The notes under the pieces: generated by a model
The model's database searches: none
Told to the model about the DNA's origin: nothing
What the model saw: only the letters and a program-made list of their open reading frames with translations
Made by a program: the position numbers and the translations under genes
Assembly (NCBI RefSeq): GCF_000007145.1
Contig: NC_003902.1
Coordinates: forward strand, 2,077,436 to 2,109,435
DNA length: 32,000 nucleotides
Reading direction: 5' to 3'
DNA from: Xanthomonas campestris pv. campestris str. ATCC 33913
Lineage (GTDB): Bacteria > Pseudomonadota > Gammaproteobacteria > Xanthomonadales > Xanthomonadaceae
Shown here: positions 4,132 to 21,431 of the stretch, in pieces
Position numbering within the stretch: the stretch's first letter is position 1
Layout of the letters: every line of letters starts with the position of its first letter

Positions 4132-4208
4132 GGCCCCGTAGCTCAGCTGGATAGAGCGTCCCCCTCCTAAGGGGAAGGTCGCCCGTTCGAATCGGGCCGG
4201 GGTCACCA
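4132..4208 (+). tRNA. tRNA-Arg (anticodon CCT)
   Basis: Folded by hand as a 77-nt cloverleaf. Acceptor GGCCCCG/CGGGGTC, D arm GCTC..GAGC, anticodon stem TCCCC/GGGGA with loop CTCCTAA, T arm GCCCG-TTCGAAT-CGGGC, and an encoded CCA. Confidence 0.9.
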
Positions 4209-5089: not shown

Positions 5090-6790
5090 ATGTGGAAACG
5101 ATCGGCGCCTTTTGCGCTGGCGGCTTGCCTATGGGCGGTTGCCGGGCAGGTGGCTGCACAACAGGCAGCACCCACCACGCTGGACCGGCAGGAGCAGTTG
5201 CGTCAGGCCGAAGAGATCCAGCGCCGGCAGGAGCAGGAGCGCCAGGCGCCGTTCGCCGGCCCGCGCGAGGATGCCGAGCGGGTTGATGCGCGCAGTACTG
5301 TGCTGCCCAAGGAGGAACTGTGCTTTGCGATCACCCGTGTACGTCTGTCCGGTGCTGGGGCGGATGGAGCGCGTTTTGGGTGGCTTTGGAAATCCCTGCG
5401 CCGGTATGAAGGCCGTTGCATCGGGCGCGCGGGTATCGATGTCATTCGCCGCCGCGCGTTGGACCAGCTGGTTGCACGGGGCCTGGTAACCACGCGCATC
5501 GGCGTGCCCGAGCAGGATCTCTCACGCGGCGAACTCCGCTTTGAATTGATGCCTGGCCGCTTGCGCGACGTGCGCATCGTGTCCGATCAGGGCAGCGCGT
5601 ATTGGAAGAATGCGTTGCCACTGCGCCGTGGCGACTTGCTGGACCTGCGCGCGATCGAACAGGCCGTGGAGCAGTTCAAACGGCTGCCATCGCAGGACGC
5701 CAAGATCGATATCGCACCCGGTGATGCGCCAGGCGAATCGGATCTGGTCATCACCCTGCAGCACGGCCGTCGCTGGCGCGGCGTACTCAACGCCGACGAT
5801 TCGGGGGTTGAGGCGACGGGGCGGATGCAGGGCGGTCTGGACGTATCTTTCGACAATCCATTTGGCCTCAACGATGTGCTCAGCGTCGGCTACAGCCACG
5901 ATCTGGCCACCCGCGACGAAGAGCGCGGCACGCGCGGCAACAGCCTGAGTTACAACCTGCCGTGGGGATGGTGGACGCTGGCGCTGTCTGCGTCCTCGTA
6001 TCGTTATCACCAGCGGGTGGATGGGTTTCTGCAGACTTTCCAGTCCAGCGGCGAATCCAGCAACGCACAGCTGGATCTCCAGCGTGTCCTGCATCGCAAC
6101 GGCACCAGCAAGACCTCTGTCGGCGTCACGGTGGGGCGCCGGCGTGCACGCAGTTATCTGGATGGCGTGGAAATCGGCATCCAGCGTCGCGATACCAGCA
6201 GTGCGGAATTCTATTTCACCCATCGGCGCTATTTGGGGGCGCTGCAACTCGACGTGCGGCTTGCGCACCGGCGTGGCACGCCGTGGTTCGACAGCCAATG
6301 GACTGGCTATGACCCGCAGATCGGTTTCCCCTCGTTTCGCTATGGCGTCACCACGCTGGACGTCAGCACAGCGCTGCCGTTCAAGCTGGGTGCGGTGCCG
6401 TTTGCATGGGAAAGCAGCCTGCGCGCACAGACGGCGGGCGAGCTGTTGCTCGGGTCGGAATTCGTCACCATTGGCGGCCGTTACAGCGTGCGCGGGTTCG
6501 ACGGCGAAGCCACGCTGGGTGCCGAGAAAGGCGCCTATTGGCGCAACACGCTCAGCCTGCCTGTGCAGCAACTCGGCATAACGCCGTACCTCGGCTTGGA
6601 TGCAGGCCGCATTGATGGCAGCAGTGCCAGCGGCCTGCGCGGGCGCAGCCTGGTCGGCGGTGCCGTGGGCCTGCGTGGCGGCTGGTTCGGCGCCAGCATC
6701 GATGCCTTTGCCGGTTGGGCGATCCATCGCCCGGATGGTTTCGGCAGTGCTCAGCCTGCGTACGGCGCACGGTTGATCTACCAGTTTTGA
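5090..6790 (+). CDS. fhaC: TpsB outer-membrane transporter (ShlB/FhaC/HecB family) of a two-partner secretion system
   Basis: 566-aa ORF with a signal peptide (MWKRSAPFALAACLWAVAGQVAAQ), a POTRA-like N-terminal half, a beta-barrel C-terminal half containing GGRYSVRGF, and a terminal F. It lies directly upstream of a TpsA gene. Confidence 0.9.
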   Translation: MWKRSAPFALAACLWAVAGQVAAQQAAPTTLDRQEQLRQAEEIQRRQEQERQAPFAGPREDAERVDARSTVLPKEELCFAITRVRLSGAGADGARFGWLWKSLRRYEGRCIGRAGIDVIRRRALDQLVARGLVTTRIGVPEQDLSRGELRFELMPGRLRDVRIVSDQGSAYWKNALPLRRGDLLDLRAIEQAVEQFKRLPSQDAKIDIAPGDAPGESDLVITLQHGRRWRGVLNADDSGVEATGRMQGGLDVSFDNPFGLNDVLSVGYSHDLATRDEERGTRGNSLSYNLPWGWWTLALSASSYRYHQRVDGFLQTFQSSGESSNAQLDLQRVLHRNGTSKTSVGVTVGRRRARSYLDGVEIGIQRRDTSSAEFYFTHRRYLGALQLDVRLAHRRGTPWFDSQWTGYDPQIGFPSFRYGVTTLDVSTALPFKLGAVPFAWESSLRAQTAGELLLGSEFVTIGGRYSVRGFDGEATLGAEKGAYWRNTLSLPVQQLGITPYLGLDAGRIDGSSASGLRGRSLVGGAVGLRGGWFGASIDAFAGWAIHRPDGFGSAQPAYGARLIYQF

Positions 6791-6859: not shown

Positions 6860-9800
6860 ATGGACAAGCAAACGATGGGCATGCGTGGTTACGTGGCCGA
6901 ACAGTGCAAGCGCGGACTGGCGCTGCTGCTGTGCTGCACGGTGACCTGGACATCGTTTCCGGCGTGGGCGCAGGTTGCGCCAACGCCCAATCCCGGCGGT
7001 CAACAGCCCGGCCAGCAGGTCGCGGCCAACGGCGTGCCGGTGGTGGACATCGTCGCGCCGAATGCGCGTGGCATCTCGCACAACCGCTACAGCAACTTCA
7101 ATGTTGGCCCCAATGGATTGATCCTCAATAACAGCGCGCAGATTTCCAAGACCGAACTTGGCGGCTACGTGGCCGGTAACAACAATCTGCAACGCAGCGG
7201 CGCGGCCTCGTTGATCCTCAACGAAGTGACCTCGGCCAGCAGCCGCCTGCAGGGCTATACCGAAATTGCAGGCGCCAAGGCGCAATTGGTCATCGCCAAC
7301 CCCAATGGCATTTCGTGCGATGGCTGCGGCTTCCTCAACACCTCGCGTGTCACTTTGACGACCGGCGCGCCCAACCTGGGTAGCGATGGTGCATTGAACG
7401 GCTTCACGGTGACTGGCGGTGCGTTGAGCATCGGTAGCAATGGCCTGGATGCGTTCAATGTGGACCGTCTGGACCTGCTGTCGCGCCAGTTGAGCGTGGG
7501 CGGTTCCATCTGGACCAAGGAACTGGTAGCCACGGCCGGTACCGGCCGTATCAATTACGACGGCATGCTGCTGGATGTGTTGCCGGGCACCGATGGTGGC
7601 GCACCGGCGATCGGTATCGACGTTGCGCAGCTTGGCGGCATGTATGCGGACCGGATTCGCCTAATTGCCACAGAGGCCGGTGTCGGCGTGGTAAGTCGCG
7701 GGACCTTGGCCGCGCAAAGTGGTGATCTGCAGATCGATGGCGCAGGGCAGGTGAGCTTGCGTGGCACCACGGTCGCGCGCGACGGCTTGAGCGCGCGTGC
7801 GGCTGGCGATCTGGAGCAGAGCGGCGTGCTTGGATCGCAGCAGGGCACGGTCAGCCTGCGCGGCGCACAGCTGCGTCTGGGGGGCGATCTGGTCGCCGCA
7901 GGTGCACTGGATGCGCAGGCCAGTGGCACGCTGACACACAGTGGGCGTAGCAGCGCGGGCTCGATCCGTCTGTTCGGTTCTCAATTGAACGCGGACGGCA
8001 GTTTGCATACGCAAGGTGTGCTGGACCTTGGCGCCGATGGGCTGCTGCGCACCGGCGGGGTTGCTTATGCAGGTGCGGGTGCGACCCTGCGCGCCGTGCG
8101 CCTTGGCGTGTCGGGGACACTGCAGAGCGGTGCTTCGATCAGCATGCAGGCGAACGAGATCGATGCACTGGGAACGTTGGACGCAGCGACCGCGTTGCGG
8201 GTGAACAGCACAGGCGGCTTGCGCCTGGCGGGGCTGGCCCAGGCGGGGCAGGATGCCGATGTGCAGGCCGGCGGCCCCCTGGAGCTGCAGGGCCAGCTGG
8301 TTGCTGGCAATGCGCTTTCGTTGGGTGCAGGCAGCGCGCGTATCGCGCAAGGCGCGGCGGTATCGGCGGGTGGCGATCTGGCCATGCGTAGCGTCGGGTT
8401 GTTGGAGACGGCCGGTAGCGCCTATGCAGGCCGCGACCTTCAGGTCCAGGCGGGTGCGCTGAACAACGCCGGACGCCTGTCTGCTGTGCGCGCTGCGCAA
8501 GTGGCGGTGGATCAGGCGGTGGACAACAGCGGCACGCTGGTCGCTGGCGCAACCTTGCGTGTGGATGCGGGGCAGCTGGACAGCCGCGGCGATGTGGGCA
8601 GCCAGGCGGCTGACACTGTGGTGCGGAGCCGCAGCAGCCTGAATCTGCGCGGCAATACCGTGGCAGGCGCGGCCATGACGCTGGATGCCGCGACCACCGC
8701 CGATGTCTCCGGCACGCTCAGTGCGGGCCGGCTGGATCTGCGCAGTGGCGGCAACGCCACACTTGCCGGCGCGATACAGACCAGCAGCGGTGCGCTGACC
8801 GTGGCGTCTGCTGCAGCGCTGACCAGCAGCGGCATCCTGCGGTCCACGGGCGAGCTGGCGTTGCAGGCCAACGGGTCCCTGCTGCAGCGCGGACAACTGC
8901 GCAGCGACGGCAATCTGCTGCTCGCAGGTGCGGCCATCGATAGCGACGGCACCGTGGACAGTGGTGGCAACCTTCGTCTTGCCAGCCAGGGCGACATGCA
9001 GCTAGCCGGCACCCTTCAAAGCGCAGGTGCAACTGCGCTACAAGCCAGTGGCCGGGTGCACAACGGCGGTGCAGTCGTTGCGGTGGGCACGTTGGGCCTG
9101 GATGCCGCAGCGCTGCGGAATGCGCAAGGTGCGGCGTTGTCGTCTCAGGGTGATGCCACCTTGCGTACCGCCGGCCTGCTGGATAACGCGGGCAGCCTGT
9201 CTGCCGGCGGCAACCTGCAGCTCACTGCAGCGAACGTGGTGCAACAGGGCAGCGCGACTGCGGGCAACGCACTGACCGCTTCGGTCAGCGAAACGCTCGA
9301 CAACACCGGCAGCCTGGTCGCCAAGCAAGCCGTGCAAATCGATGCCGGCGCGTTGCGCAGCAATGGGCAGCTTGGCAGCGAGTCGGCCGATGTTCGATTG
9401 AATTCGCAAGGCGATATGCGCTTGGGCGGCGTGGTAGCTGCGGCAACCGAGCTCCAGGCAGCGGCTGCCGGAGATCTGCAGCAAGACGGCGCCTTGCGTG
9501 GGCAATCGGTGACGGTGCAGGCTGGGCGGGACCTCACCACTGCAGGTAGCTTGCAATCCACCAACGCGCTGGACCTGCAGGCGCAGCGCACGCTGACCTT
9601 TGCTGCGCAGGGTGCGGTCGGCGGCGATGCGCGTCTGCGTGCAGGCACGCTCGCCACCACCGACGCTGCGGTGCTCCAGAGCGCCGGTGCGATTGGCCTG
9701 GACGCTACGGCCATCGACAGCCGCGGCAAGCTCGATGCTGCGGGCGACCTACGTGCCAGCAGCCAAGGAGATCTGCGGCTTGCCGGTGTTGCGCAAGGCG

Positions 9801-12800
9801 GGCGCGATGTCACGCTGAGCGCTGGTGGAAACCTCGAGAATGCTGCGCAAGTGTTTGCCGGCGGCGATTTGGCCGCACAGGCGCAGCGCATTGAAAATGC
9901 CAGCGCCGGTGTGTTGGCCGCCGAGCGGGATGTTGCGGTGGACAGTACTACGCAGCTGGTCAATGCCGGCCGCGTGCAAGCCGGTCGGGATCTTCAGATC
10001 ACCACTGCCGGCTTCGAACAGACGGGCAGCGCCTCTGCAGGCGCTGCACTGACCGCAATGATTGCAGGCGCTCTGGAAAACAGCGGCAACCTGATTGCCA
10101 AAGATGCGCTACGCGTTGATGCCGGCACGTTGCGCAGCAGCGGCCAGTTGGGCAGTGAGCGTGCCGCCGTCAGCTTGAACAGCCTGGGCGAAATGCAACT
10201 GGCGGGCGTGGTCGCTGCGGCAACCACCTTGCAGGCCACTGCAGCAACCGACCTGCAACAGGCCGGCGCGCTCAAGGCCCAGTCCATCGCACTCCAGGCT
10301 GGGCGCGATCTCGCTGCCGCCGGCACCCTGCAGTCCACATCCACGCTCGATCTGCGCGCGCAACGTGCCTTGACCATCACTGGTCAGGCATCCAGCAGCG
10401 CAGCGACTTCTCTCACCGCCGGGACGATTGCCACCGGCGTCGATGCCGTCGTGCAGAGCGGCAGCGGCATCACCCTGGACGGGCAGTCCATCGACAGCCG
10501 TGGTGCGCTCGATGCCGCCAGTGACCTGCAGATTTGCAGCACTGGCGCACTGGCGCTGGCCGGTGTTGCCCAGGCCGGGCAGGACGTGGTGCTGACCGCC
10601 GGTGGCGCCTTCGACAACGCAGCACAGGTTGTTGCGGCGCGCGATCTGCGCCTGCAGGCGGCCACTGCCAGCAATGCAGCTGGCGGAACATTGGGGGCAT
10701 TGCGCGATCTGCACGTGGAGACGGCTGGCGTGTTCGACAACGCCGGCAGCCTGCATGGCGAACGCAGCCTGGCGCTGAGCACGGGCGCGCTGCTGCAGCG
10801 TGGGCGTTTGTACAGCGGTGATGCGCTGTCGATCACTTCGCAAGGCGCATTCGACAATAGCGGCCAGTTGGTGTCCGGCAATGATCTGAGCATTACCGCA
10901 AGCCGCATCAGCAGCAATGGCCAGTTGGGATCGGTGAATGGCGCGGTGGCGCTGACCAGCCAGGGCGATGTCGACCTGAAGGGCGTGGTATCTGCCGCCA
11001 CCACCCTGCAGGCCACGGCCGGCGGGGACCTGCTACAGGCGGGCACGCTCTCTGCGCAGTCTGTGACGCTGAATGCCGGGCGCGACCTCAGCGCTTCCGG
11101 TACCTTGCAGTCTGCCTCCACCTTGGACATGCAGGCGCAGCGCGCACTGCGCATAAGTGGCCAAGCCCAGGCAAACAGCATCGCCTTGCAGGGCGGTAGC
11201 GTGGCAACAGGGACTGGCGCCGTCGTCAAGAGTGTCGGTGCGATCACGCTGGACGGCGCTGCCATCGATAGCCGCGGTACGTTGGATGCCGGTAGCGATC
11301 TGTCATTGCGCAGCACCGGTGACCTGTCTGTCGCCGGCATCGCGCAGGCAGGTCGCGACGTGGTGCTGAGCGCTGCGGGAACCGTGCAGAACGGCGGCCA
11401 GGTGGTAGCCGGTCGCGACATGTCGGTGCAGGCAGGTCGTGTCGACAACACTGCTGCCGGCGCGCTTGGTGCGGGTGGAGCACTTACCGTGGTCAGCGCT
11501 GGCGCGTTGCAGAACGACGGCGCCCTGCAGAGTGGCGGCGAGCTGCGCATGACCGCAGCAAGCCTCGATCAGAGCGGTAGCGCGTTCGCCGGCAATACGC
11601 TGGTTGCAAACATCACCGGTACGCTGGACAACCGCGGCAGTCTCACCGCCAAAAATGCATTGCAGCTGGACAGCGGTGGCTTGCGCAGCAGCGGGCAGCT
11701 GGGTAGTGAGACAGCTGGCGTCACGCTGCACAGCCGGGGCGATCTGCAGTTGCAGGGCGTTGTTGCCGCGGCGACCACCTTGCAGGCCACTGCGGTGGGC
11801 GATCTGCAACAGGCCGGCTCGCTCAAGGCGCAGTCCGTTGCGCTGCAGGCCGGCCGCGACCTGGGTATCTCCGGTACGCTGCAATCGGCATCGTTACTCG
11901 ACCTGCAGGCGCAGCGCACGCTGGGCATGACAGGGCAGGCGAGTGCCGCCGGCAATGCCAGCTTGCGCGGTGCGCAGGTGGTCACCGGTCAGGCGGCGGT
12001 GCTGCAGAGCGGTGGGGCCATCACCGTGGACGGTGCGGCGATCGATAGCCGCGGCGCGCTGGATGCAGCGACCGACCTGACGTTGCGCAGTACCGGCGAC
12101 CTTGCGGTGGCCGGCATCGCGCAGGCAGACCGCAATCTCACTTTGGCCGCCACAGGCGCGCTCAGCAATGCGGCGCAGGTCGTTGCCGGCCAGGCGCTCG
12201 GCGTCACCGCAAACAGCGCGAGCAATGCCGCGACCGGTGTACTACTCGCCCAGGGGAGCACCACGCTGGCGATCGGCGGCCTGTTCGATAACGCCGGCGC
12301 CGTGCGTGCGGGCAACCAGCTGAGCATGAACGTCGGCAGCCTGCGCCAGACCGGGCAGGCCTACGGTCTGCAGGGCCTGGGGTTGATCGCCGGCGGCGCG
12401 GTGGACAATCGTGGTGATCTGATCGGCGGTAACGCGTTGCGTGTGGAAGCGGCGCAGCTGAGCAGTAGCGGCCAGCTGGGCAGCGAGCGTGGCGATGTCG
12501 CACTGATCAGTCGCGGCAACCTGCAACTTGGCGGCACGCTCGCAGCGGCAGGGGCGTTTTCGGCCCAGGCGGATGGCGCGTTGGCGCAGAGCGGCAGCGT
12601 GAGTGCCGGCTCCAATGTGGAGCTGCGTGCGAAGGGTGACCTGAATGTTGCTGGCCAGCTTGGCGGCCAGCAGATCACCTTGAACAGCGATGCGGTCCTG
12701 CGCCAGCAAGGCGTGGTCAGCGGCACCACTGTCGGTTTGCAGGGTGCGCGTATCGAAAATGCCGGCCAGACCACAGCCTCCGGCAATCTCACCTTGCGCG

Positions 12801-15616
12801 CCGGCGACATCAGCATTGGTGGCACCGTTGGCGCCGGTATCGCAGGCGATGGCAGCTTGGGCAACGGCAACACGCTCAGCGTGATCGCAGACCGCCAACT
12901 CACTGCGTCCGGCAAGTTGCTGGCCGGCGGCAATCTCATCGCACAGGGAAGCCAGTTGCAGTTGGCCGGTGCCAGCACGCGCGTCACTGGCAACGCCAGC
13001 TTGACCACGGGCGGTGATCTGGATCATCGCGGTGGCGATCTACTTGCGGGCGGTACGCTTAGCCTGCAGGCGGGTGGCCGTATCGATCACGGTCTGCTTG
13101 GATCGGTTGGCGGAAAGCTGCAGGCCAACCAGATCAGCATCGATGGCGGCAGCTTGAACAATGCCGGCGGCCAGCTGGTGCAAAGCGGCAGCGGAGCGAC
13201 CCGCGTCGTGATCGGCGGTGCATTCGACAACACCGGCGGCACGCTGGCCAGCAATGGCCAGGATCTGACCATCAGTGCCGGCAGTGTGGAGAACGCGCAA
13301 GGCCGCATTGAACACGCCGGTGCCGGCAGTTTGTCGGTCACCAGCCGCGGCGCCTTGGGTAACAGCGGTGGGCGCCTGGTCAGCCAGGGTCAGCTATCCG
13401 TCGGCGCAAGTGCCGCGTTGAATAACCAGAGCGGCGTGATTGCCGCGGCGGGTGATGCAGTGGTTACGGCCGCCAGCCTTAACAACGTTGGCGGCTCGGT
13501 GGCAGCGCGTGGATTGACTGTGCAAACCACCGGCGCGGCCGACAATCGTAATGGCCTGCTGCAGGCCAACGGCGGTGCACTGATCCTGCGTGCAGACAGC
13601 CTCAGCAACGCCGGCGGTACCGTGCACGCACTGGCCAATGCAGGCGTAGGCGGAGGCTTGCGCGTCGAACTGACGCGTAGCCTGGATAACGGCGATGGCG
13701 TGATCGGTGCCAGCAACGATGCAGTAATCACGGCGGAAAACATCAGCAGCAGCGGTGGCAGCCTGCAAGCCGGGCGTGACCTCAATGTCACTGCGCGCGG
13801 TCAGCTGGACAATCATCAGGGTGGCAAACTCAGCGCCGGGCGCGACCTCATCGTTGTGGCGACCGGTGCGCTACTCAATAGCGGTGGCCAACTGGATGCC
13901 GGCAATGCACTGACTGCATCGGCGGGCCGGATCGACAACACTCAAGGCAGCATCGTCAACAACGGAGGCGGGCTGACCCGCATCACCACCGGCGGTGCGC
14001 TGACCAACACCAGCGGCAATCTCGGTGGGCGTGGCAGCGTGGTCATCGATGCGGCCAGCATTGCCAACAACAGCGGCCAGCTGGTCGCTGGTGGCGATTT
14101 GATTGCCAACACCAGTGCGTTGAACAACCAGGGCGGCAACGTTTACGCCGGTGCCAACTTCCGCCTGGAGCGCAGCGGCGCCACGTTGGATAACCGCAAC
14201 GGCAAGATCAAGGCCGAGCAGTCGGTCCGCCTCAATGTGCAGAGCCTGAGCAATGCGGGCGGGCAGATCGGCGCCGGCAGCACGACCGGTGGCGCTGGCG
14301 ATGTCGTGATCGATACTGTCGGCTTCGACGGTGGCGGCAGCATCCTCGCGCAGAACCTGCTCGACATGACCCTGCGCAGCGACTATACCCACCGCGCCGG
14401 GGCCGACCTCACCAGCAATGGCGATTTCAATCTGCGCGTGGGTGGCAACCTGGTCAACGAAGCCACCCTCACGGCGACGCGCCGGCTGGACATTACTGCC
14501 GGCAGCATCACCAATCGCGCCGGTGCCAACATCGCGTCCAATGACACCCGCCTCAATGGGGGCGGCGTCATCGATAACGCGGGCAGCATCTCCGGCAATG
14601 GCGCGCTGTCGCTGGTGGCGAACAGCATCAATAACACCGGCAGCATTGTCGGTGGCAATGTCTCTGTGAACACCGGCACGCTGGTCAATGGCGCGGATCT
14701 TGGTGGCGCCACCGACAACGCCGCGTACGGCTCCGCGTTGCTCGGCTCGACCGGCAACATGAGCCTTATCGTGCGCGACCAGCTGCTCAATCGCGACGCA
14801 CGCATCTTCAGCCTGGGCAATATCGCCATCGGTGGTGCGCAGGATGCCGGCGGCACGCTGGTGTCGCGCACGGGTGTGGTGAACAACTTGTCGGGCAGCA
14901 TCGAGGCGGATGGCAATATTTTGATCGCGGCGAATCAGATCAATAATCGGCGCCGTGTGGTCGATGCTAGAACCGGCCCGCTGACCGACGCTGAACGTTT
15001 TGCGGCAAATGCAGCGATGCCTGAAGATGAAATTCGGCGTGATCCCAGCCCAGGGGCGACCGTCATGGGCATTCGCTACACAGGACATCAGCCGGGGCTC
15101 TATCGTGCGTATAGCGTACGCGAGCGTGAACAGCTGATCGCCGTTAGCGCCGAAGGACGCATTGCTGCTGGCGGTAGTATCGCGTTGTCTGGATACGTGA
15201 CGAACAATGTGTCCACCATCGCCGCCGGTGGAGCGCTACTGTTAAATCAACGCGGCGTCGGTGGTTTATCGGACGCAATGCTCTCCGACAGTGACGATGT
15301 GCTCAATCAGTCGCTGGCGCTAAGGCAAGTTGTCGATTACACGGACACCGAATACAGGGCAATGCCGATCAACGGCGACTGTATGCATCGTCCCGGTCAA
15401 AATCTTCCTTGCTATTGGGAAGAGGAGGCACGCGTTTTCGGATCCGGCACATTGGACAACAGCTATCTCGCCCTCGGCGCCAGCATGACCGGTGGCCAAG
15501 GCGTCAGTATCAATGGTGCCAACATCAGTAACGGCGCAGTGGGGAGTGATGGGCGTAATGTCAGCGGCGCCTCGCTTGCAGCCGGCGTGACCTGCCCCCA
15601 TCGTCCGTACCAGTGA
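6860..15616 (+). CDS. fhaB: filamentous-haemagglutinin-like TpsA/CdiA-like exoprotein, C-terminally truncated by an IS insertion
   Basis: 2918-aa ORF. The N-terminal TPS domain is present (VVDIVAPNARGISHNRYSNFNV, LILNN, ANPNGISCDG), followed by very long Gly/Ala/Leu-rich FHA-type repeats. Native sequence ends at 15587. The last 8 codons (TCPHRPYQ) and the stop come from the IS inverted repeat. Confidence 0.9.
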   Translation: MDKQTMGMRGYVAEQCKRGLALLLCCTVTWTSFPAWAQVAPTPNPGGQQPGQQVAANGVPVVDIVAPNARGISHNRYSNFNVGPNGLILNNSAQISKTELGGYVAGNNNLQRSGAASLILNEVTSASSRLQGYTEIAGAKAQLVIANPNGISCDGCGFLNTSRVTLTTGAPNLGSDGALNGFTVTGGALSIGSNGLDAFNVDRLDLLSRQLSVGGSIWTKELVATAGTGRINYDGMLLDVLPGTDGGAPAIGIDVAQLGGMYADRIRLIATEAGVGVVSRGTLAAQSGDLQIDGAGQVSLRGTTVARDGLSARAAGDLEQSGVLGSQQGTVSLRGAQLRLGGDLVAAGALDAQASGTLTHSGRSSAGSIRLFGSQLNADGSLHTQGVLDLGADGLLRTGGVAYAGAGATLRAVRLGVSGTLQSGASISMQANEIDALGTLDAATALRVNSTGGLRLAGLAQAGQDADVQAGGPLELQGQLVAGNALSLGAGSARIAQGAAVSAGGDLAMRSVGLLETAGSAYAGRDLQVQAGALNNAGRLSAVRAAQVAVDQAVDNSGTLVAGATLRVDAGQLDSRGDVGSQAADTVVRSRSSLNLRGNTVAGAAMTLDAATTADVSGTLSAGRLDLRSGGNATLAGAIQTSSGALTVASAAALTSSGILRSTGELALQANGSLLQRGQLRSDGNLLLAGAAIDSDGTVDSGGNLRLASQGDMQLAGTLQSAGATALQASGRVHNGGAVVAVGTLGLDAAALRNAQGAALSSQGDATLRTAGLLDNAGSLSAGGNLQLTAANVVQQGSATAGNALTASVSETLDNTGSLVAKQAVQIDAGALRSNGQLGSESADVRLNSQGDMRLGGVVAAATELQAAAAGDLQQDGALRGQSVTVQAGRDLTTAGSLQSTNALDLQAQRTLTFAAQGAVGGDARLRAGTLATTDAAVLQSAGAIGLDATAIDSRGKLDAAGDLRASSQGDLRLAGVAQGGRDVTLSAGGNLENAAQVFAGGDLAAQAQRIENASAGVLAAERDVAVDSTTQLVNAGRVQAGRDLQITTAGFEQTGSASAGAALTAMIAGALENSGNLIAKDALRVDAGTLRSSGQLGSERAAVSLNSLGEMQLAGVVAAATTLQATAATDLQQAGALKAQSIALQAGRDLAAAGTLQSTSTLDLRAQRALTITGQASSSAATSLTAGTIATGVDAVVQSGSGITLDGQSIDSRGALDAASDLQICSTGALALAGVAQAGQDVVLTAGGAFDNAAQVVAARDLRLQAATASNAAGGTLGALRDLHVETAGVFDNAGSLHGERSLALSTGALLQRGRLYSGDALSITSQGAFDNSGQLVSGNDLSITASRISSNGQLGSVNGAVALTSQGDVDLKGVVSAATTLQATAGGDLLQAGTLSAQSVTLNAGRDLSASGTLQSASTLDMQAQRALRISGQAQANSIALQGGSVATGTGAVVKSVGAITLDGAAIDSRGTLDAGSDLSLRSTGDLSVAGIAQAGRDVVLSAAGTVQNGGQVVAGRDMSVQAGRVDNTAAGALGAGGALTVVSAGALQNDGALQSGGELRMTAASLDQSGSAFAGNTLVANITGTLDNRGSLTAKNALQLDSGGLRSSGQLGSETAGVTLHSRGDLQLQGVVAAATTLQATAVGDLQQAGSLKAQSVALQAGRDLGISGTLQSASLLDLQAQRTLGMTGQASAAGNASLRGAQVVTGQAAVLQSGGAITVDGAAIDSRGALDAATDLTLRSTGDLAVAGIAQADRNLTLAATGALSNAAQVVAGQALGVTANSASNAATGVLLAQGSTTLAIGGLFDNAGAVRAGNQLSMNVGSLRQTGQAYGLQGLGLIAGGAVDNRGDLIGGNALRVEAAQLSSSGQLGSERGDVALISRGNLQLGGTLAAAGAFSAQADGALAQSGSVSAGSNVELRAKGDLNVAGQLGGQQITLNSDAVLRQQGVVSGTTVGLQGARIENAGQTTASGNLTLRAGDISIGGTVGAGIAGDGSLGNGNTLSVIADRQLTASGKLLAGGNLIAQGSQLQLAGASTRVTGNASLTTGGDLDHRGGDLLAGGTLSLQAGGRIDHGLLGSVGGKLQANQISIDGGSLNNAGGQLVQSGSGATRVVIGGAFDNTGGTLASNGQDLTISAGSVENAQGRIEHAGAGSLSVTSRGALGNSGGRLVSQGQLSVGASAALNNQSGVIAAAGDAVVTAASLNNVGGSVAARGLTVQTTGAADNRNGLLQANGGALILRADSLSNAGGTVHALANAGVGGGLRVELTRSLDNGDGVIGASNDAVITAENISSSGGSLQAGRDLNVTARGQLDNHQGGKLSAGRDLIVVATGALLNSGGQLDAGNALTASAGRIDNTQGSIVNNGGGLTRITTGGALTNTSGNLGGRGSVVIDAASIANNSGQLVAGGDLIANTSALNNQGGNVYAGANFRLERSGATLDNRNGKIKAEQSVRLNVQSLSNAGGQIGAGSTTGGAGDVVIDTVGFDGGGSILAQNLLDMTLRSDYTHRAGADLTSNGDFNLRVGGNLVNEATLTATRRLDITAGSITNRAGANIASNDTRLNGGGVIDNAGSISGNGALSLVANSINNTGSIVGGNVSVNTGTLVNGADLGGATDNAAYGSALLGSTGNMSLIVRDQLLNRDARIFSLGNIAIGGAQDAGGTLVSRTGVVNNLSGSIEADGNILIAANQINNRRRVVDARTGPLTDAERFAANAAMPEDEIRRDPSPGATVMGIRYTGHQPGLYRAYSVREREQLIAVSAEGRIAAGGSIALSGYVTNNVSTIAAGGALLLNQRGVGGLSDAMLSDSDDVLNQSLALRQVVDYTDTEYRAMPINGDCMHRPGQNLPCYWEEEARVFGSGTLDNSYLALGASMTGGQGVSINGANISNGAVGSDGRNVSGASLAAGVTCPHRPYQ
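8519..12400 (+). repeat. in-frame tandem super-repeat inside fhaB, period 777 bp (259 aa), five full copies
   Basis: The repeat-unit anchor motif (V/L/F)(D/E)N-x-G starts at 8519, 9296, 10073, 10850, 11624 and 12401, giving spacings of 777, 777, 777, 774 and 777 nt. Blocks such as IDSRG-LDAA-DL...AGVAQAG-DV recur at the same offset. A more diverged copy probably sits upstream (about 7742) and a partial one downstream (to about 12650). Confidence 0.85.
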
Positions 15617-16669
15617 TTACTGATAAAGCCCGGGGTTGAAGGGTACTGCGTTGTTGGCTTGTTGTGTACGGTAGTTGGCGGCGAACTGTGCCGGCGGGAT
15701 GCGACCACAACTGCTGTGCGGCCTGATCTGGTTGTAGTGGCGTCGCCAGTCTGCGATCACGTCCCGGGCTTGTGCCAACGAGGTGAACCAGTGCTCGTTG
15801 AGGCACTCGTCGCGGAACTTGCCGTTGAAGCTTTCGATGTAGGCGTTCTGCGTGGGGGCACCCGGCTCGATCAGGATGTGCTCGATGCCATGTTGCTGCG
15901 TCCAGGCAATGAAGGCGCGACTGGTGAACTCGGGGCCATTGTCGGTGCGGACCGCGCGTGGATAGCCACGGAAACACGCCGCCTGATCGAGCAGGCGCAC
16001 TACGTAAGCCCCGCTGATGCCGTGATCCACGGCAATGTCCACGCTCTCGCGAGTGAAGTCGTCGACCACGGTCAGGCACTTGATGCGGCGTGCGTTGGCC
16101 AGCGCATCGAACACGAAGTCCATGCTCCAGGTGTCGTTCGGCATGGAGGACGCCAGCAGTTTCTGCCGCTCACCCACCGGACGCTTGGCCTTGCGCCGTT
16201 TGCGCACCTTCAGCTCGGCTTCCTCGTACAGGCGATAAATCTTTTTGTGATTCACGGATGGAAACTCCGGGCGCAACAAATCATGCAGTCGGCGATAGCC
16301 GAAGCGGCGGTGGGTCTGGGCCAGCTCGACCAGCCGCGCCGACAGCGCCTGCGTGGCTGGCGTCGGCACGGGTGCGTGGCGGAAAGCATCGCGGGACAGC
16401 CCCGCAAGGCGGCAAGCCCGGCGCTCGCTCAACGGGGTGTGTTCGAGCATTCGTCGGATTGCCTCGCGCTTGCGTTGCGGGGCTAGCGTTTTACCCCGAA
16501 GCCAACCTTCAGCGCTTCGATGTCCAGGTGCGCCTCGGCCAGCAACTTCTTCAATCGAGTGTTCTGGACCTCCAGTTCTTTCAGCCGCTTGGCCTCGTCG
16601 GCCTCCATCCCCCCGTACTTGGCCCGCCACTGATAAAAGCTGGCCGGGCTGAAACCATGCCGACGGCAC
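15617..16669 (-). CDS. IS3-family transposase OrfB (DDE integrase domain), presumably expressed as an OrfAB -1 frameshift fusion
   Basis: The ORF is in the -1 frame relative to OrfA and overlaps it at 16483-16669. The rve-type core includes WSMDFV, VDDFTRE and RTDNGPEF. I could not identify the slippery heptamer. Confidence 0.85.
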   Translation of the reverse strand: MPSAWFQPGQLLSVAGQVRGDGGRRGQAAERTGGPEHSIEEVAGRGAPGHRSAEGWLRGKTLAPQRKREAIRRMLEHTPLSERRACRLAGLSRDAFRHAPVPTPATQALSARLVELAQTHRRFGYRRLHDLLRPEFPSVNHKKIYRLYEEAELKVRKRRKAKRPVGERQKLLASSMPNDTWSMDFVFDALANARRIKCLTVVDDFTRESVDIAVDHGISGAYVVRLLDQAACFRGYPRAVRTDNGPEFTSRAFIAWTQQHGIEHILIEPGAPTQNAYIESFNGKFRDECLNEHWFTSLAQARDVIADWRRHYNQIRPHSSCGRIPPAQFAANYRTQQANNAVPFNPGLYQ

Positions 16670-16749
16670 AACTCTGCCACGGCCATGCCCGCGTCGGCCT
16701 GTTTGATAAACCCGATGATCTGCTCGGTGCTGAATCTGCTCTTCTTCAT
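16483..16749 (-). CDS. IS3-family transposase OrfA (HTH)
   Basis: 88 aa: MKKSRFSTEQIIGFIKQADAGMAVAELCRRHGFSPASFYQWRAKYGGME..., followed by a leucine-zipper-like tail. This is the typical IS3/IS407 OrfA. Confidence 0.9.
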   Translation of the reverse strand: MKKSRFSTEQIIGFIKQADAGMAVAELCRRHGFSPASFYQWRAKYGGMEADEAKRLKELEVQNTRLKKLLAEAHLDIEALKVGFGVKR

Positions 16750-17087
16750 GTCCGTCCTCTTGGGTTCACGGACTTTATAGCTTCAGCTGGTACGGCTCAG
16801 TGGGGGCAGGTCAGCAGGTCACCCTTTCCAAACAAAGAGTATTTGCCTCAGTTCTTTTTTGAAATAGCGAAAAATATTTCCGACCTTATGCTTTATCGCT
16901 ACTCTCGCGGGGATGATATCAATCTAATAGGGCGGAGATTCGATACATTGCTAGACTCATGGGAGAAATCCGTCGGGCTGGGAAATGATATCTGGGACGA
17001 AGATACTAAGCGAACTAGAACTTCCTGGGATGTCAATATTGATTTTTATTCATATTGCCTGCGCCTTGTAGGATTGTCTTTGTTGTT

Positions 17088-18595
17088 AGTCGCCCCTGAA
17101 AAACCCCCTTCAAGCACCAAGTGTCATCGGCGACAGCGGCACGGCGCTAAAGGATGGCCATCCCATCGCCCGCATCCAGGCACGCAAAAACGCGATCCAG
17201 CGCAGCAGCCAGCGCAGGTTGTAGCCGGCGGCGCAGCCGAGTACGTGCAGCGCATCGCCTTGTGCACCTTTCAGCCTGCAGCGACGCAACCTGCAGTCGT
17301 CTTTCAGATGTCCGATCACCGGTTCCACCGCCTGCCGTCGTTTGATCCAGCGCCATTGCCGTCGCGTCAGCGTCTTGGCCTTGCCACGATGGAGCACCTG
17401 CACGCCATCGACCTCGCGCCCGCGATAGCCCAGGTCCACGATCGCCACCGTCGGTTCTACGCTCAGATCCTGCAGCAACCCGCGTGTCTGCTCCAGCTGC
17501 TCGGCCAAGGTGTCGCCGTCGTACGGGTTGCCCGGGAAGCTACGCGCACCCACGACCAATCCCTTGCAGGCGGTGACCGCAATGCCGACCTTGACGCCGA
17601 ATTCGTACGCTTGACGCGCCTTGCCCTTACCGATGCATTCCACTTCCGGGGCATGCAATGCGTACAGTTTTTGTTTGTCCTTCGGACGCTGCGTGTACAG
17701 CCGTTGCGCACGTTCCAGCCAGACCGCGATGCGCTCGCGCACGCCGGGTTCCACCTGGTCCAGCTTGCGCGCGATATCGCGCAACACCCGCCCCAAGACC
17801 GTGCGTTGACGTCGCAGCACGCGCTGCATGCGCTTGAACTGGCGTGCATGCGCATAGCGGCCCGCCTTGCGGCTCAGGGCCGGACCTTGCCGTGCGTAGC
17901 TCTGCCGCAACCCGATGCCGTAACGCTTGGCCAGCAGCACCAGTTTCTTGCGTGCCACCTCCAGCAACCGACTATCGGTCGGATAGGCAATCGCCTTTTC
18001 CTGCACCGTGGTGTCCACGATCACCCGCGACAACTCGCGTGCGTCCACCGCCTGCATGGCATGTGCAGCGTTGATGGTGTGTGCCAGCAACTCTTCCATC
18101 CCCGCTTCGTCAAGCCGCTGACGCCAGCGCGTCAGCGAGCTGGCATCGCACGGCAAGCGCGTCTGGAACACGACCTCGCCAGTGAAAAACTGCCAATACG
18201 GATTTTCCAGCCAACGCTCGCACACCGCCTCATCGGACAGGTCGTAGGCGTGTTTGAGGTAGAGCAAACCGGCGATCAGCCGCACCGGCAATGCCGGCCG
18301 ACCGCCACCAGCCTGGGTGGCCGGCAAGCGCGATGAAAGTGCTTGCTCCAACGCCGTCCACGGCATCCGTTGGCTCAGCTGCGCCAGCGGATGCCGCAGA
18401 TCGATCTGGTTCTCCAGGCGCGAACGAAACAACTCCTCGGCAGGCATGTGCTCGGCAGCAGGACGGCGTGTATGCATGAGTGGAAATTGCCAGAAACCAG
18501 CCTTCAGCGTAGCGAAAACTGGTAGTTCTGGCACGCCACTGCAGACATCAAGGCCTTGCGGGCGTTGGGTGATTGGGGGTTTTTCAGGGGCGACT
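17088..18595 (-). mobile_element. IS5-family insertion sequence (about 1.5 kb)
   Basis: Perfect terminal inverted repeats: AGTCGCCCCTGAAAAACCCCC at 17088-17108 and its reverse complement at 18575-18595. Flanking duplication is TGTT (17084-17087 and 18596-18599). The boundary and duplication are ambiguous, because TTGTTAG is also repeated. It contains a single DDE transposase ORF. Confidence 0.85.
17110..18477 (-). CDS. IS5-family DDE transposase
   Basis: The tracked ORF 17110..18534 starts at a GTG. In-frame ATGs occur at 18477 (MHTRRP..) and 18447 (MPAEELFRSRLENQIDLRHPL..). The body is typical of IS5-group transposases (..VIVDTTVQEKAIAYPTDSRLL.., ..AIVDLGYRG..). Confidence 0.85.
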   Translation of the reverse strand: MHTRRPAAEHMPAEELFRSRLENQIDLRHPLAQLSQRMPWTALEQALSSRLPATQAGGGRPALPVRLIAGLLYLKHAYDLSDEAVCERWLENPYWQFFTGEVVFQTRLPCDASSLTRWRQRLDEAGMEELLAHTINAAHAMQAVDARELSRVIVDTTVQEKAIAYPTDSRLLEVARKKLVLLAKRYGIGLRQSYARQGPALSRKAGRYAHARQFKRMQRVLRRQRTVLGRVLRDIARKLDQVEPGVRERIAVWLERAQRLYTQRPKDKQKLYALHAPEVECIGKGKARQAYEFGVKVGIAVTACKGLVVGARSFPGNPYDGDTLAEQLEQTRGLLQDLSVEPTVAIVDLGYRGREVDGVQVLHRGKAKTLTRRQWRWIKRRQAVEPVIGHLKDDCRLRRCRLKGAQGDALHVLGCAAGYNLRWLLRWIAFLRAWMRAMGWPSFSAVPLSPMTLGA

Positions 18596-19407
18596 TGTTA
18601 GATTTTCCTGCTCCCAAATGGCAGCGGCTCATAAGTTTGGTTGGCAATGAGGGGGAGGATGAAGTTCTTGATCGAATTATTGCTCATAGATCTCCGGGGA
18701 GAATTATCGGATCTAGAGTTTGCTTTCCGCAAGCATATAGTTCGCTCCTGGAGGTGATGAGGGAGCGCGATGAAAATCAAGCGTCGCATTTAAAGCAATT
18801 TATCGCGGGATGGTTTCAAAGTTTGCGCGATGCGGGATCCACAAGTGTTCCCCCTCCACACCGCACGCCATATTGGTGGAAGTCCTGTGCCGATGAGGCG
18901 TTTGGCATGCAGGGCAGTTATCACGGTTGCTGGTGCATTGAAGCAGCAGTCGTCGCAAGATTATGTCAAATAGACGATAGTGCCTGCGTGGAGATGCCAT
19001 TTTATCCTGCCGACCTTGTCTCAGACGGCCGAAGCCCTCGATACCCTGATGTCCCATCTTCTTTTGAGCTCAGGCTGGATCAAAAAAAGAAGAGTTTTAG
19101 TGGGCTAAGAGGAATATTTAATTTCCGTAAAAAGTGAATTCGACCTGATCGCCACCGGCGGTGGTGAAGACAGCAACCTCCTGGTGCGCGGCAGCGACAT
19201 CAAAGCCGGCAACAACCTGCTGTTGGCTGCCGACAACAACATCACCCTGGAAGCGGCGCAGGACACCTTCGAGCAGCACAGCACCAGCAAGAGCAAGAGT
19301 GCAGCGATCGGCGTGGCGGTCACCTATGGTGCGGACGACTTTGCCGCCGGCATCACCGCCAGCGCCAGTGGCTCGCGTGGCAAGGCCGGTGATAACGGGG
19401 TCAGGTT

Positions 19408-20757
19408 CTAAGGTATCCCCACGTTTTACACCGTAAGCGTCATCTGCTCGCGCACTGCCGCAGGCAGTGCGCGCAAGCGCCCTATCCACCGTGAGACGGG
19501 TTCCATCGGCCACTGCCTGACCAGCGCTTCTCGGCCGATGCGTAGCGTGGAGTAAAGCTTGCGTGTGCTGTTGCGAGGAGACAGCCACTGGGCGATACCG
19601 GTCGCTTCGCATCCCAGCCCCGCCAACCAGCTGGCGAATGCAGCCAACGTATTGATCAGCAGCAGGATCTGCAGTCGCTCGCCGCGTCGGGTCAAACTGT
19701 CTTCCAGCGCCTGGCCGTAGCGATGTGATTTCAGATCGCGAAATGCAAGCTCGATCTGCATCCGTCGTGCGTACACATTGACCAACTGCTTTGCGCTGGG
19801 CGCCTGCAGCTGCGGGGATGCAACGATGAGCCAAGGCTCGCGCTCGCGCGCTGCGGCCTTCAGACTCGATGACGCACGCGAGACTTTGGCGGGTGAGCGG
19901 CGATTGCACTGTTTGCGCCCTTGCCGTGCCTTGGCGTAAATCACCAACCTGCAATCGAGTGGATCGCTGCGATTGGCCTGCATCGGCGGTAACTCGCATG
20001 CACGATTGGACGCCAACACATGCAGTTTCCGGCTGTCGATCCACTGATCTGCTTCATCCCGCACGTCCTGCGGCTTGACTTGCGTGCGCCCGCGCAGTCG
20101 CCCAACCCAACACCAGCCCATGGCCGATACAGCGCGGAACCACGGTGTCCGGAAGCCGGCGTCAGTGACCAGGATCGGGCGAACATCGTCCGGAACCAGT
20201 GCCCTCAGTTGTTGCAAGAAGCGTCTTTCTGCACCAGGCGATCCCTGCTGCTTTCCTGGCACTACCATGTCCAGCAAGGTAAGCGTGCGGCCGCCCACCG
20301 GCACCGCTGCGCGCAGCAGACACCACGATTTGTCTGGCTTCAGATCGCTCCAGTCGATGACGATTACCGGCTGCGCGCCGCGCAGCAGCCAGTGCGCCAT
20401 CTCGTGGTCGATCACTGATCGCTCGACCTGCAAATTGCGATTACTCAACAGGCGATCAACTGCCTTGAGCGGCGCGCGCACCCGCAGTGCGCTCGGCCAC
20501 GAACGTGCGATGTCCATCAGTGTCAGCCTGCGTCCGTGCAACAACGCCTCGACCGCATGCAGCAACGCGCGTTCGCGCAACGCATGCATCCCGGACAGTG
20601 AGTTGGGCAGGCACTTCTGCAATACTTCGCTGGCGCGCATGGTCGTCAACCTTCTCTGGCTTAGTCACCTTGAAGATTGCGCCATGCGCGCACTTTCTTC
20701 CAGGCAATTACGTCGCAAGTGATTGATTTGCCAGGAGGAAATGTGGGGAAACCTCAG
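19408..20757 (-). mobile_element. IS4-family insertion sequence (IS10-like), 1350 bp, with 9-bp target-site duplication
   Basis: Inverted repeats: CTAAGGTATCCCCACGTTTT (19408-19427) against the reverse complement of 20738-20757, CTGAGGTTTCCCCACATTTC (16 of 20 identical, IS10-like CTGAG..ATCCCC ends). The direct repeat GGTCAGGTT flanks both ends (19399-19407 and 20758-20766). Confidence 0.85.
19426..20640 (-). CDS. IS4-family DDE transposase
   Basis: The tracked ORF 19426..20649 starts at a TTG; the likely start is the ATG at 20638-20640 (MRASEVLQK..). It carries the IS4 Y-(2)-R-(3)-E-(6)-K signature in YARRMQIELAFRDLK. About 404 aa, comparable to the IS10 transposase. Confidence 0.85.
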   Translation of the reverse strand: MRASEVLQKCLPNSLSGMHALRERALLHAVEALLHGRRLTLMDIARSWPSALRVRAPLKAVDRLLSNRNLQVERSVIDHEMAHWLLRGAQPVIVIDWSDLKPDKSWCLLRAAVPVGGRTLTLLDMVVPGKQQGSPGAERRFLQQLRALVPDDVRPILVTDAGFRTPWFRAVSAMGWCWVGRLRGRTQVKPQDVRDEADQWIDSRKLHVLASNRACELPPMQANRSDPLDCRLVIYAKARQGRKQCNRRSPAKVSRASSSLKAAAREREPWLIVASPQLQAPSAKQLVNVYARRMQIELAFRDLKSHRYGQALEDSLTRRGERLQILLLINTLAAFASWLAGLGCEATGIAQWLSPRNSTRKLYSTLRIGREALVRQWPMEPVSRWIGRLRALPAAVREQMTLTV

Positions 20758-20943
20758 GGTCAGGTTCACTTATCAAGTGAGCCGGCGTCAGTTTAACGAC
20801 TGGCAGCCTCGCCTAAAGTTGATTCATCCATGATCACAGGTCTGCGCTCTGTTTGCATCGCCTGGACAGTCTATGTGGCAACGTGCGCGACATTCGAATG
20901 CCTGAATAGCATGCGCTCACTCGCTAGCTGTATGGAGATGTCG

Positions 20944-21431
20944 ATGACAAAGAAAGCGCAGTGGCTTGGACTGGTGGGCTGGTTGGTGCTCTGCTATCTG
21001 GTGGCGGCTTGGGAGCGGCGGCGTCGATCCAGGCAGCCAGCTTCTACGCCGGGTTGCAGCGGCCGGGCTGGGCACCGCCGGGGTGGTTGTTCGGGCCGGT
21101 GTGGACTGTGTTGTACGGGATGATGGCGGTGTCGGTGTGGTTGATCTGGCGGCGTGGCGGGTGGGGTGGGGCGCGCGGTGCGCTGACCGTGTTCGTGTTG
21201 CAGCTGGGGCTCAATGGGTTGTGGAGCTGGCTGTTCTTTGCGTGGCACATGGGGGCGTGGGCATTTGCCGATATCGTGGCGCTGTGGTTGGCGCTGGTGG
21301 CGACCATCGTGACGTTCGCTCGGCACAGCCGTAGTGCTGCGTGGTTGTTGGTTCCCTATCTGCTGTGGATCAGCTTTGCGGCGGCGCTGAACTATGCGGT
21401 GTGGCAGCTCAATCCTCAGCTGCTTGGGTGA
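20944..21431 (+). CDS. tspO: TspO/MBR tryptophan-rich sensory protein, with an apparent frameshift near 21004-21012
   Basis: Frame B (GTG 20961..21431) encodes the conserved body: FYAGLQRPGWAPPGWLFGPVWTVLY..LNGLWSWLFF..LLVPYLLW. The ATG at 20944, with GGAG 6 nt upstream, opens a different frame that encodes a textbook first transmembrane helix (MTKKAQWLGLVGWLVLCYLVAAW). My hand count of third-position GC favours frame A before about 21006 and frame B after it. Confidence 0.7.

Follow-up and report, generated by a model that had tools for sequence, protein, structure and literature searches.

When an insertion sequence (IS) of the IS3 family inserts simply, a target-site duplication of 3-4 bp is expected. 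Among the described systems closest to the locus considered here, PoNe toxins occur fused to the delivery domains of contact-dependent inhibition (CDI) systems, and 90% of them are immediately followed by a gene with DUF1911 (PoNi) (Jana et al. 2019, PMC6688995). In Xanthomonas oryzae, fhaB/fhaC have been lost between copies of ISXo5, according to the passage of PMC7777525 in which that loss is cited. Here, we analyzed a stretch of 32,000 nucleotides (the window) from X. campestris pv. campestris (Xcc) str. ATCC 33913 (NC_003902.1, positions 2,077,436 to 2,109,435, forward strand), in which fhaB is cut short by a copy of IS476. Our data suggest, with a probability of roughly 0.85, that this is a decayed CDI locus that suffered an IS-linked deletion. 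A literature search returned no description of this Xcc locus beyond the placement of fhaB in a variable region.

Results

IS476 separates the remains of fhaB from those of another gene

The IS occupies positions 15588 to 16813 (1226 bp, transposase on the minus strand) and belongs to the IS407 group of the IS3 family. Its boundaries are exact because all 1226 bp were 100% identical to annotated copies in 32 plasmid records, from X. euvesicatoria and X. campestris, that carry the label 'IS3-like element IS476 family transposase'. An earlier reading of the locus, made from the letters alone (the sequence-only reading), had placed the ends at the same positions. They are perfect 13-bp terminal inverted repeats that begin with TG and end with CA, TGACCTGCCCCCA at the transposase 3′ end (15588 to 15600) and TGGGGGCAGGTCA at the orfA-proximal end (16801 to 16813), and the repeat and its reverse complement had just these two matches within the whole window. 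Two overlapping frames on the minus strand carry an HTH region and then a DDE (rve) core, namely orfA (88 aa, 16483 to 16749, Pfam HTH_Tnp_1) and the orfB frame (15617 to 16669, Pfam rve, rve_3 and HTH_21); identical copies are annotated as a 377-aa OrfAB fusion over 1133 nt. The NCBIfam model transpos_IS3 matched the element with 241 bits (cut-off 160).

The 4-mers on the two sides differ, GGCG on the left (15584 to 15587) and GCAG on the right (16814 to 16817), as had already been noticed, and the target-site duplication of a simple IS3-family insertion is absent. Since a duplication belongs to the insertion event and not to the element, its absence points to rearrangement and not to an element outside the IS3 family. 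The sequence-only reading overlooked that the 8 bp at 16814 to 16821, GCAGGTCA, duplicate the final 8 bp of IS476 in tandem. If these 8 bp are counted into the IS, the right flank becomes CCCT, which is still unlike GGCG.

Upstream of the IS, fhaC/cdiB (5090 to 6790, plus strand) encodes a TpsB transporter of 566 aa with POTRA_2, POTRA_3 and ShlB matches in Pfam (E = 1e-104 for ShlB), and the identical protein is present in many Xcc genomes. It adjoins the truncated fhaB/cdiA (6860 to 15616, plus strand), the product of which has 2918 aa, an N-terminal TPS domain and 11 Fil_haemagg stretches of the FHA-1 type. A POTRA and ShlB-barrel protein next to such a TpsA protein is the arrangement of two-partner secretion, and the NCBIfam models TIGR01901 and TIGR01731 also matched two-partner secretion proteins here. 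Exactly 2909 native codons, a number given before as approximate, precede the IS and end at 15586, and base 15587 opens codon 2910. The frame then runs through nine codons read from the IS (V-T-C-P-H-R-P-Y-Q; eight in the earlier count) and stops at 15616. By Pfam, the 2918-aa product contains FHA-1 repeats but no Fil_haemagg_2 and no PT-VENN match; it lacks the FHA-2 region, the VENN pretoxin region and the variable C-terminal toxin that characterize CdiA delivery.

The GC content is 65.6% in fhaB compared with 41.7% at 16814 to 17089, and an earlier hand count of 19 G/C in the 60 nt from 16821 to 16880 was correct. This low-GC stretch to the right of IS476 measures only about 280 bp, and a second IS follows at 17090. 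Exact removal of IS476 would put the fhaB fragment and the fragment to its right in the same frame, which we take as a 1-in-3 coincidence.

Related genomes contain the segment missing between the two flanks

Searches for exact matches to four proteins (FhaC, ThrA, TspO and the truncated FhaB) placed the window in Xcc and returned many structural variants of the locus (numbered with the prefix L), which served for comparison. One Xcc genome, L022 (CP101170), carries an uninterrupted fhaB of 4464 aa; its match to the window breaks off precisely at 15587, and its empty site reads GCCGGCG|GTCAGCAAACGG. When the last 350 native FhaB residues were used as the query, matches were found only in Xanthomonas, the best of them in X. 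hortorum (L001, 96% amino-acid identity). The X. hortorum FhaB has 4498 aa and continues for about 4.7 kb beyond the equivalent point, after which tspO and thrA follow as in the window. When the 401 residues that follow the junction in L022 were used as a protein query, all the proteins returned were shorter than about 700 aa, and the 4464-aa allele itself was not among them.

The distal fhaB region is kept in L029/L055 (CP062066) and in L034. Once an IS5-type element (TTAG duplication) and ISb (our label for a relative of IS476, 81% identical; GGCT duplication) are subtracted from L029, one frame of 1672 aa results, with Fil_haemagg_2 (E = 3e-73), DUF637, PT-VENN (E = 5e-11, motif AENN) and a C-terminal domain of about 390 aa. 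A 299-aa PoNi gene starts 31 bp after this domain. Position 16822 of the window corresponds to codon 33 of that gene and is the right break point. The native PoNi in L029 and L032 reads GCTAGCGAG|CCCTTTCC, whereas the window reads GGTCA|GCAGGTCA|CCCTTTCC; the 8 bp are therefore filler absent from native PoNi.

We estimated the loss against a composite reference, in which the first 1.2 kb beyond the junction come from L022 and the far part from L034/L029, with X. hortorum L001 used to scale the gap of about 300 bp between them. By this composite estimate, about 6.8 kb of fhaB, the 31-bp spacer and 96 bp of PoNi, or about 6.9 kb of native DNA, lie between the window flanks. The loss took the toxin-bearing distal part of fhaB together with the 5′ end of the downstream gene, as the sequence-only reading had correctly proposed; the alignment to uninterrupted relatives that it recommended identified the missing segment through L022, L029/L055 and L034.

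The gene to the right of the deletion is a PoNi immunity gene in two pieces. The first piece (16822 to 17089, plus strand) comprises codons 33 to about 121 with no start codon, matches PoNi_N with 30.9 bits (cut-off 22.4) over profile positions 47 to 106, and is 100% identical to positions 7539 to 7806 of L029, where PoNi starts at 7443. The second piece, the C-terminal part (18595 to 19137, plus strand), matches PoNi_C (E = 4.5e-19; 69.7 bits, cut-off 25). Both pieces are contiguous in L023/L029, and the intact 299-aa homologue contains PoNi_N (DUF1910) as well as PoNi_C (DUF1911), which identifies it as a PoNi protein. The window copy is a pseudogene, with its first 32 codons and start gone and the remainder split by an IS5-family element. 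The idea that an immunity-like gene had been kept beside a disarmed exoprotein was thus right about the kind of gene and wrong about its being kept. In a PoNi search, a representative with 100% identity was found solely on two 1.1-kb metagenome contigs.

Many strains share the junction, and its right end points are nested

L045-L047 and L049-L052 share the window junction at 100% identity, as do 11 further similar places, and the exact 2918-aa FhaB product has index entries in 198 blocks of the genome collection. An assembly artefact in which a repeat collapsed at the IS could be imagined from the N gaps at this IS in some drafts (L023, L030, L031 and L033). However, it is very improbable, because the identical junction is present in many genomes, including the gap-free complete genomes L037/L050, L046, L047, L049 and L051, and we rejected it.

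A simple IS476 insertion without deletion, in which the duplication mutated away or the boundaries were misplaced, has only general possibility in its favor. Its probability is negligible: the boundaries are fixed by the 100% identity to other IS476 copies, with no shifted ends that would give identical flanks; the left flank runs on as fhaB in L022; and PoNi codons 1-32 and the toxin domain precede the right flank in L029/L032. These comparisons led us to reject both the boundary shift and the lost duplication. None of the relatives compared had the two flanks contiguous apart from 3-4 bp (GCAGCCGGCG, GCAGGTCACCCTTTCC). Insertion of the IS into a pre-existing deletion was likewise rejected, because it would have left a duplication.

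Across strains, the right end points next to the IS are nested. In L031/L032, IS476 in the window orientation is followed by GCTTTTTAG inside the toxin domain, and PoNi is intact. In the window and many other genomes, IS476 is followed by the 8-bp filler and PoNi codon 33. L035 has ISb followed by GGCTTTTTAG, with GGCG as its left and GGCT as its right flank, and L038 has ISb followed by TCGTCGC, deep within PoNi. Both IS-adjacent deletion and recombination between IS copies are reasonable explanations of such nested end points. The L035 flanks are those expected if an IS at codon 2909 recombined with the ISb copy that bears the GGCT duplication in L029.

This L035 junction speaks for a single-step, RecA-dependent homologous recombination between direct IS476 repeats at codon 2909 and in PoNi: it fits a two-copy exchange exactly for ISb, with GGCG on the left and half of the GGCT duplication on the right, and IS476 is multicopy in these genomes. 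However, the right flank in the window is GCAGGTCA and then CCCTTTCC, compared with GCGAG|CCCTTTCC in native PoNi, and a normally inserted second copy would leave native PoNi directly after the IS tip. Moreover, none of the locus variants retrieved has IS476 at the PoNi position of the window. We consider this exchange unlikely as the explanation of the loss, and a clean exchange of two normally inserted IS476 copies is disfavored for the final junction of the window. The cause put forward in the sequence-only reading, IS-adjacent deletion or recombination between two IS copies, is compatible with the nested end points, although its clean two-copy form would not account for the 8-bp filler.

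One left junction is used by several insertion sequences

The left junction after codon 2909 is common to IS476, which has the window orientation in some strains and the reverse in others (strain 8004, here L020, as well as L024 and L027), and to ISb (L035, plus orientation); probably ISb also lies there in L030, L033 and L036. For L020, L024 and L027, the comparison covers the left junction, as the 10-kb stretch from fhaC ends inside the IS. A third IS3-type element, ISc, lies 1 bp to the left of the junction, with a loss of 1.5 kb on its right side (L034/L055). In the final 3.8 kb of native fhaB, the sequences form two clades separated by 22 single-nucleotide polymorphisms (SNPs), each with two different occupants. 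The right junctions of IS476 and ISb in the toxin region are 1 bp apart, and in L058 (CP066953) a fourth element, ISd, joins PoNi 8-9 bp downstream of the window junction. Three junction pairs lie within 9 bp of each other among 14 junctions in 8.3 kb (P ~8e-4 under random placement, in a post hoc test with approximate coordinates).

IS911 targets insertion next to sequences that resemble inverted repeats. A comparable preference would underlie serial IS replacement, in which an IS3-family element inserts within a few bp of a resident IS407-group tip and the resident is then lost through the shared 12-13-bp termini or through whole copies; the 8 bp would be a GCAG duplication plus a GTCA stump. 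Besides the clustered junctions and the shared left junction, the left ends speak for it: every IS476 and ISb copy reads TGACCTGCCCCC there in either orientation, so that short-homology or whole-IS recombination with a downstream copy would keep the left junction and swap the occupant. On the other side, no intermediate with abutting ISs was observed among the variants, the junctions were chosen after the fact from approximate coordinates, and sequence-specific hot spots would cluster likewise. We regard serial replacement as a tentative alternative, with less than even odds. The broader version, that codon 2909 and two other junctions of the locus are sites at which residents were removed through shared 12-13-bp termini, with GCAGGTCA as a stump, one flank fixed, the type and orientation of the IS changing and the other flank progressively eroded, is somewhat more doubtful still. 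The recurrent use of junctions is a modestly interesting side observation.

Other rearrangements of the locus were also seen. In L058 (5150-9330), ISd is an IS3-type element with termini TGCGACGTCC...GGACGTCGCA and a 367-aa transposase, occurs twice in the PoNi region, and has a tip that appears 1 nt short at the PoNi junction. In L027 (CP012145, 20470-21701), IS476 seems inverted and devoid of its last ~64-72 bp and is followed by an oppositely oriented orfA-proximal end; that region is rich in N and ambiguous calls, unique fhaB included, and the structure is either a real foldback rearrangement or the result of a mixed population or poor consensus. The Xcc sequence L025 (CM002605, 20200-21130) has a larger and different loss, in which fhaB homology stops at window position 15325; ends of the IS5-family element come next, and after them the sequence that immediately precedes tspO.

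IS476 copies often have no target-site duplication

Six full-length, 100%-identical plasmid copies of IS476 (L039-L044) were checked for their flanks. Five of the six have no 4-bp duplication, and one (L044) has ACAC on both sides; IS476 copies thus often mark the end points of rearrangements. Two differing flanking 4-mers are also the chance expectation. The sequence-only reading had used the missing duplication as an argument for deletion; the absence is genuine, but the argument is weaker than stated. Because an absent duplication is common for IS476, the case is decided by the comparative genomes. The related ISb in L029 does carry a 4-bp duplication (GGCT). A literature search on IS476 returned nothing about its duplications.

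Neighboring features

Of the three ISs in the window, IS476 alone is without a duplication; the other two are plain insertions, each with a clean duplication and a site that is empty in relatives. The first, an IS5-family element of 1505 bp within PoNi (17090 to 18594, minus strand; NCBIfam transpos_IS5_1, NF033578, 549 bits), is flanked by a 7-bp duplication, TTGTTAG (17083-17089 and 18595-18601), and its site is empty in L023, L029 and L046, as befits an IS5 insertion. The same element was seen elsewhere in relatives, between PoNi and the orphan fragment described below (L035/L059) and inside IS476 (L048/L049). The second, an IS4-family element of 1348 bp (19409 to 20756, minus strand; NCBIfam transpos_IS4_2, NF033591, 358 bits), has an 11-bp duplication, GGGTCAGGTTC (19398-19408 and 20757-20767), within the 9-12 bp of IS4 elements, and L029 has the empty site. 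In L051, two copies of the element lie in tandem.

The IS4-family element lies in an orphan FHA-2 (Fil_haemagg_2) fragment (19121 to 19408, resuming at 20768-20833, plus strand), recognized from the matching open reading frame of L029. The uninterrupted counterpart in L029 (8326-8679, 117 aa) matches Fil_haemagg_2 with E = 3e-18. Farther downstream, tspO (20900-21431) looks N-terminally disrupted: compared with the 166-aa X. hortorum homologue, its first transmembrane segment (MTKKAQWLGLVGWLVLCYLVAA...) is out of frame with the rest, and the annotated products have only 156, 140 or 98 aa.

Between the window fhaB and the L022 allele, there are 52 differences (22 nonsynonymous and 30 synonymous), strongly clustered at 7663-8816 and 12229-13088. 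This clustering suggests recombination or gene conversion among the repeats and not even divergence. The tRNA-Arg(CCT) gene at 4132-4208, just upstream of fhaC, marks a break in synteny. At this break, strain 8004 (L020) and L047 carry an island with a phage-type integrase and a DUF4011 helicase, L024 and L027 carry genes for type IV secretion system coupling proteins, and the window carries an aldehyde dehydrogenase gene and housekeeping genes.

Discussion

Overall, our comparison suggests a probable history for this locus. The ancestral order would have been fhaC, an fhaB/cdiA gene of about 5,170 codons, PoNi, the orphan FHA-2 fragment, tspO and thrA, and the ancestral FhaB would have consisted of TPS, FHA-1, FHA-2, DUF637, PT-VENN and a C-terminal toxin of about 390 aa. 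First, an IS407-group element would have inserted behind codon 2909 of fhaB. Everything up to PoNi codon 32 (about 6.9 kb) would then have been removed in one or more events, each anchored on the right-hand IS tip, so that IS476 now stands between the unrelated flanks GGCG and GCAG, with 8 bp of its tip duplicated at the joint. The order of these events and the chemistry of the deletion are what we infer; our comparisons show which IS is involved, where exactly both break points lie, what the missing segment contained, and that many strains have inherited the junction. The loss probably proceeded stepwise. For the chemistry, the likeliest route is that the IS was active locally and that IS ends or copies then recombined; aberrant end-joining at the IS tip is the alternative.

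Several observations weigh against this history. Among the variants retrieved, no strain carries IS476 at codon 2909 with a GGCG duplication and an intact distal fhaB, and the first step, the entry of the IS, is accordingly conjectural. The nearest precursor-like junction (L032) belongs to the other fhaB clade, 22 SNPs away over 3.8 kb. The 8-bp filler is predicted neither by a clean transposase deletion nor by homologous exchange between two IS476 copies; the 8 bp may come from templated slippage at the tip of the IS, from aberrant processing of the ends, or from the stump of another IS, in which case they would combine a 4-bp duplication with 4 bp of the IS into whose tip IS476 inserted. The figure of 6.9 kb comes from a composite, the L022 allele is shorter (4464 aa), and the ancestral length in the lineage of the window is uncertain. 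The C-terminal domain of about 390 aa in the relatives matched no Pfam or NCBIfam model. In L029, a D...EYK-type motif can be discerned by eye only, with no model match behind it; we call the domain PoNi-associated, and membership in PoNe is unproven and not claimed. Taken as the sole argument, the absent duplication, genuine yet not rare, constitutes weak evidence.

Our results show that a widespread Xcc lineage with this junction has lost a CDI weapon and, in the window, its antidote as well, while a long TPS filament is still encoded. The 2918-aa TPS-domain filament protein probably remains exportable. This bears on competition between Xcc strains, of which at least one (CP101170) keeps a full-length allele, and it also bears on the annotation of fhaB in Xanthomonas, where many 'hemagglutinin' genes are IS-truncated remnants. 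The variants of the locus together form a compact natural record of how ISs have eroded it repeatedly, and the recurrent break points could help in studying target choice by IS3-family elements close to the ends of other ISs.

The components, IS476, CdiA/CdiB and PoNi, and the kind of event are already known, and what we describe is ordinary IS-driven gene decay. Compared with IS476 of Xanthomonas, the element agrees over all 1226 bp, in its 13-bp TG...CA repeats, in orfA/orfB and in the DDE (rve) core, but differs in having no 4-bp duplication and an 8-bp tandem tip copy outside its right end. Like CdiB/CdiA (TpsB/TpsA) loci with cdiA-CT/cdiI, the locus has a TpsB gene upstream, TPS and FHA-1 regions, and a downstream immunity gene with an orphan FHA-2 fragment, and in its relatives FHA-2, DUF637, PT-VENN and a C-terminal domain are found as well; unlike such loci, the window has its FHA-2, pretoxin and toxin regions deleted and an immunity pseudogene, so that it would at most export a toxin-less filament. 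PoNe/PoNi pairs are similar in that a gene with PoNi_N and PoNi_C directly follows the C-terminus of a polymorphic toxin on CDI delivery domains, whereas the C-terminal domain of the relatives lies outside the Pfam and NCBIfam models and the toxin of the window is absent. In the X. oryzae ISXo5 case, as here, TPS adhesin genes are flanked or replaced by ISs, and the loss linked to them varies between strains. In contrast to that case, the loss in the window is limited to the distal half of fhaB plus the first codons of the immunity gene, the element is IS476, and the left break point is common to several types of IS.

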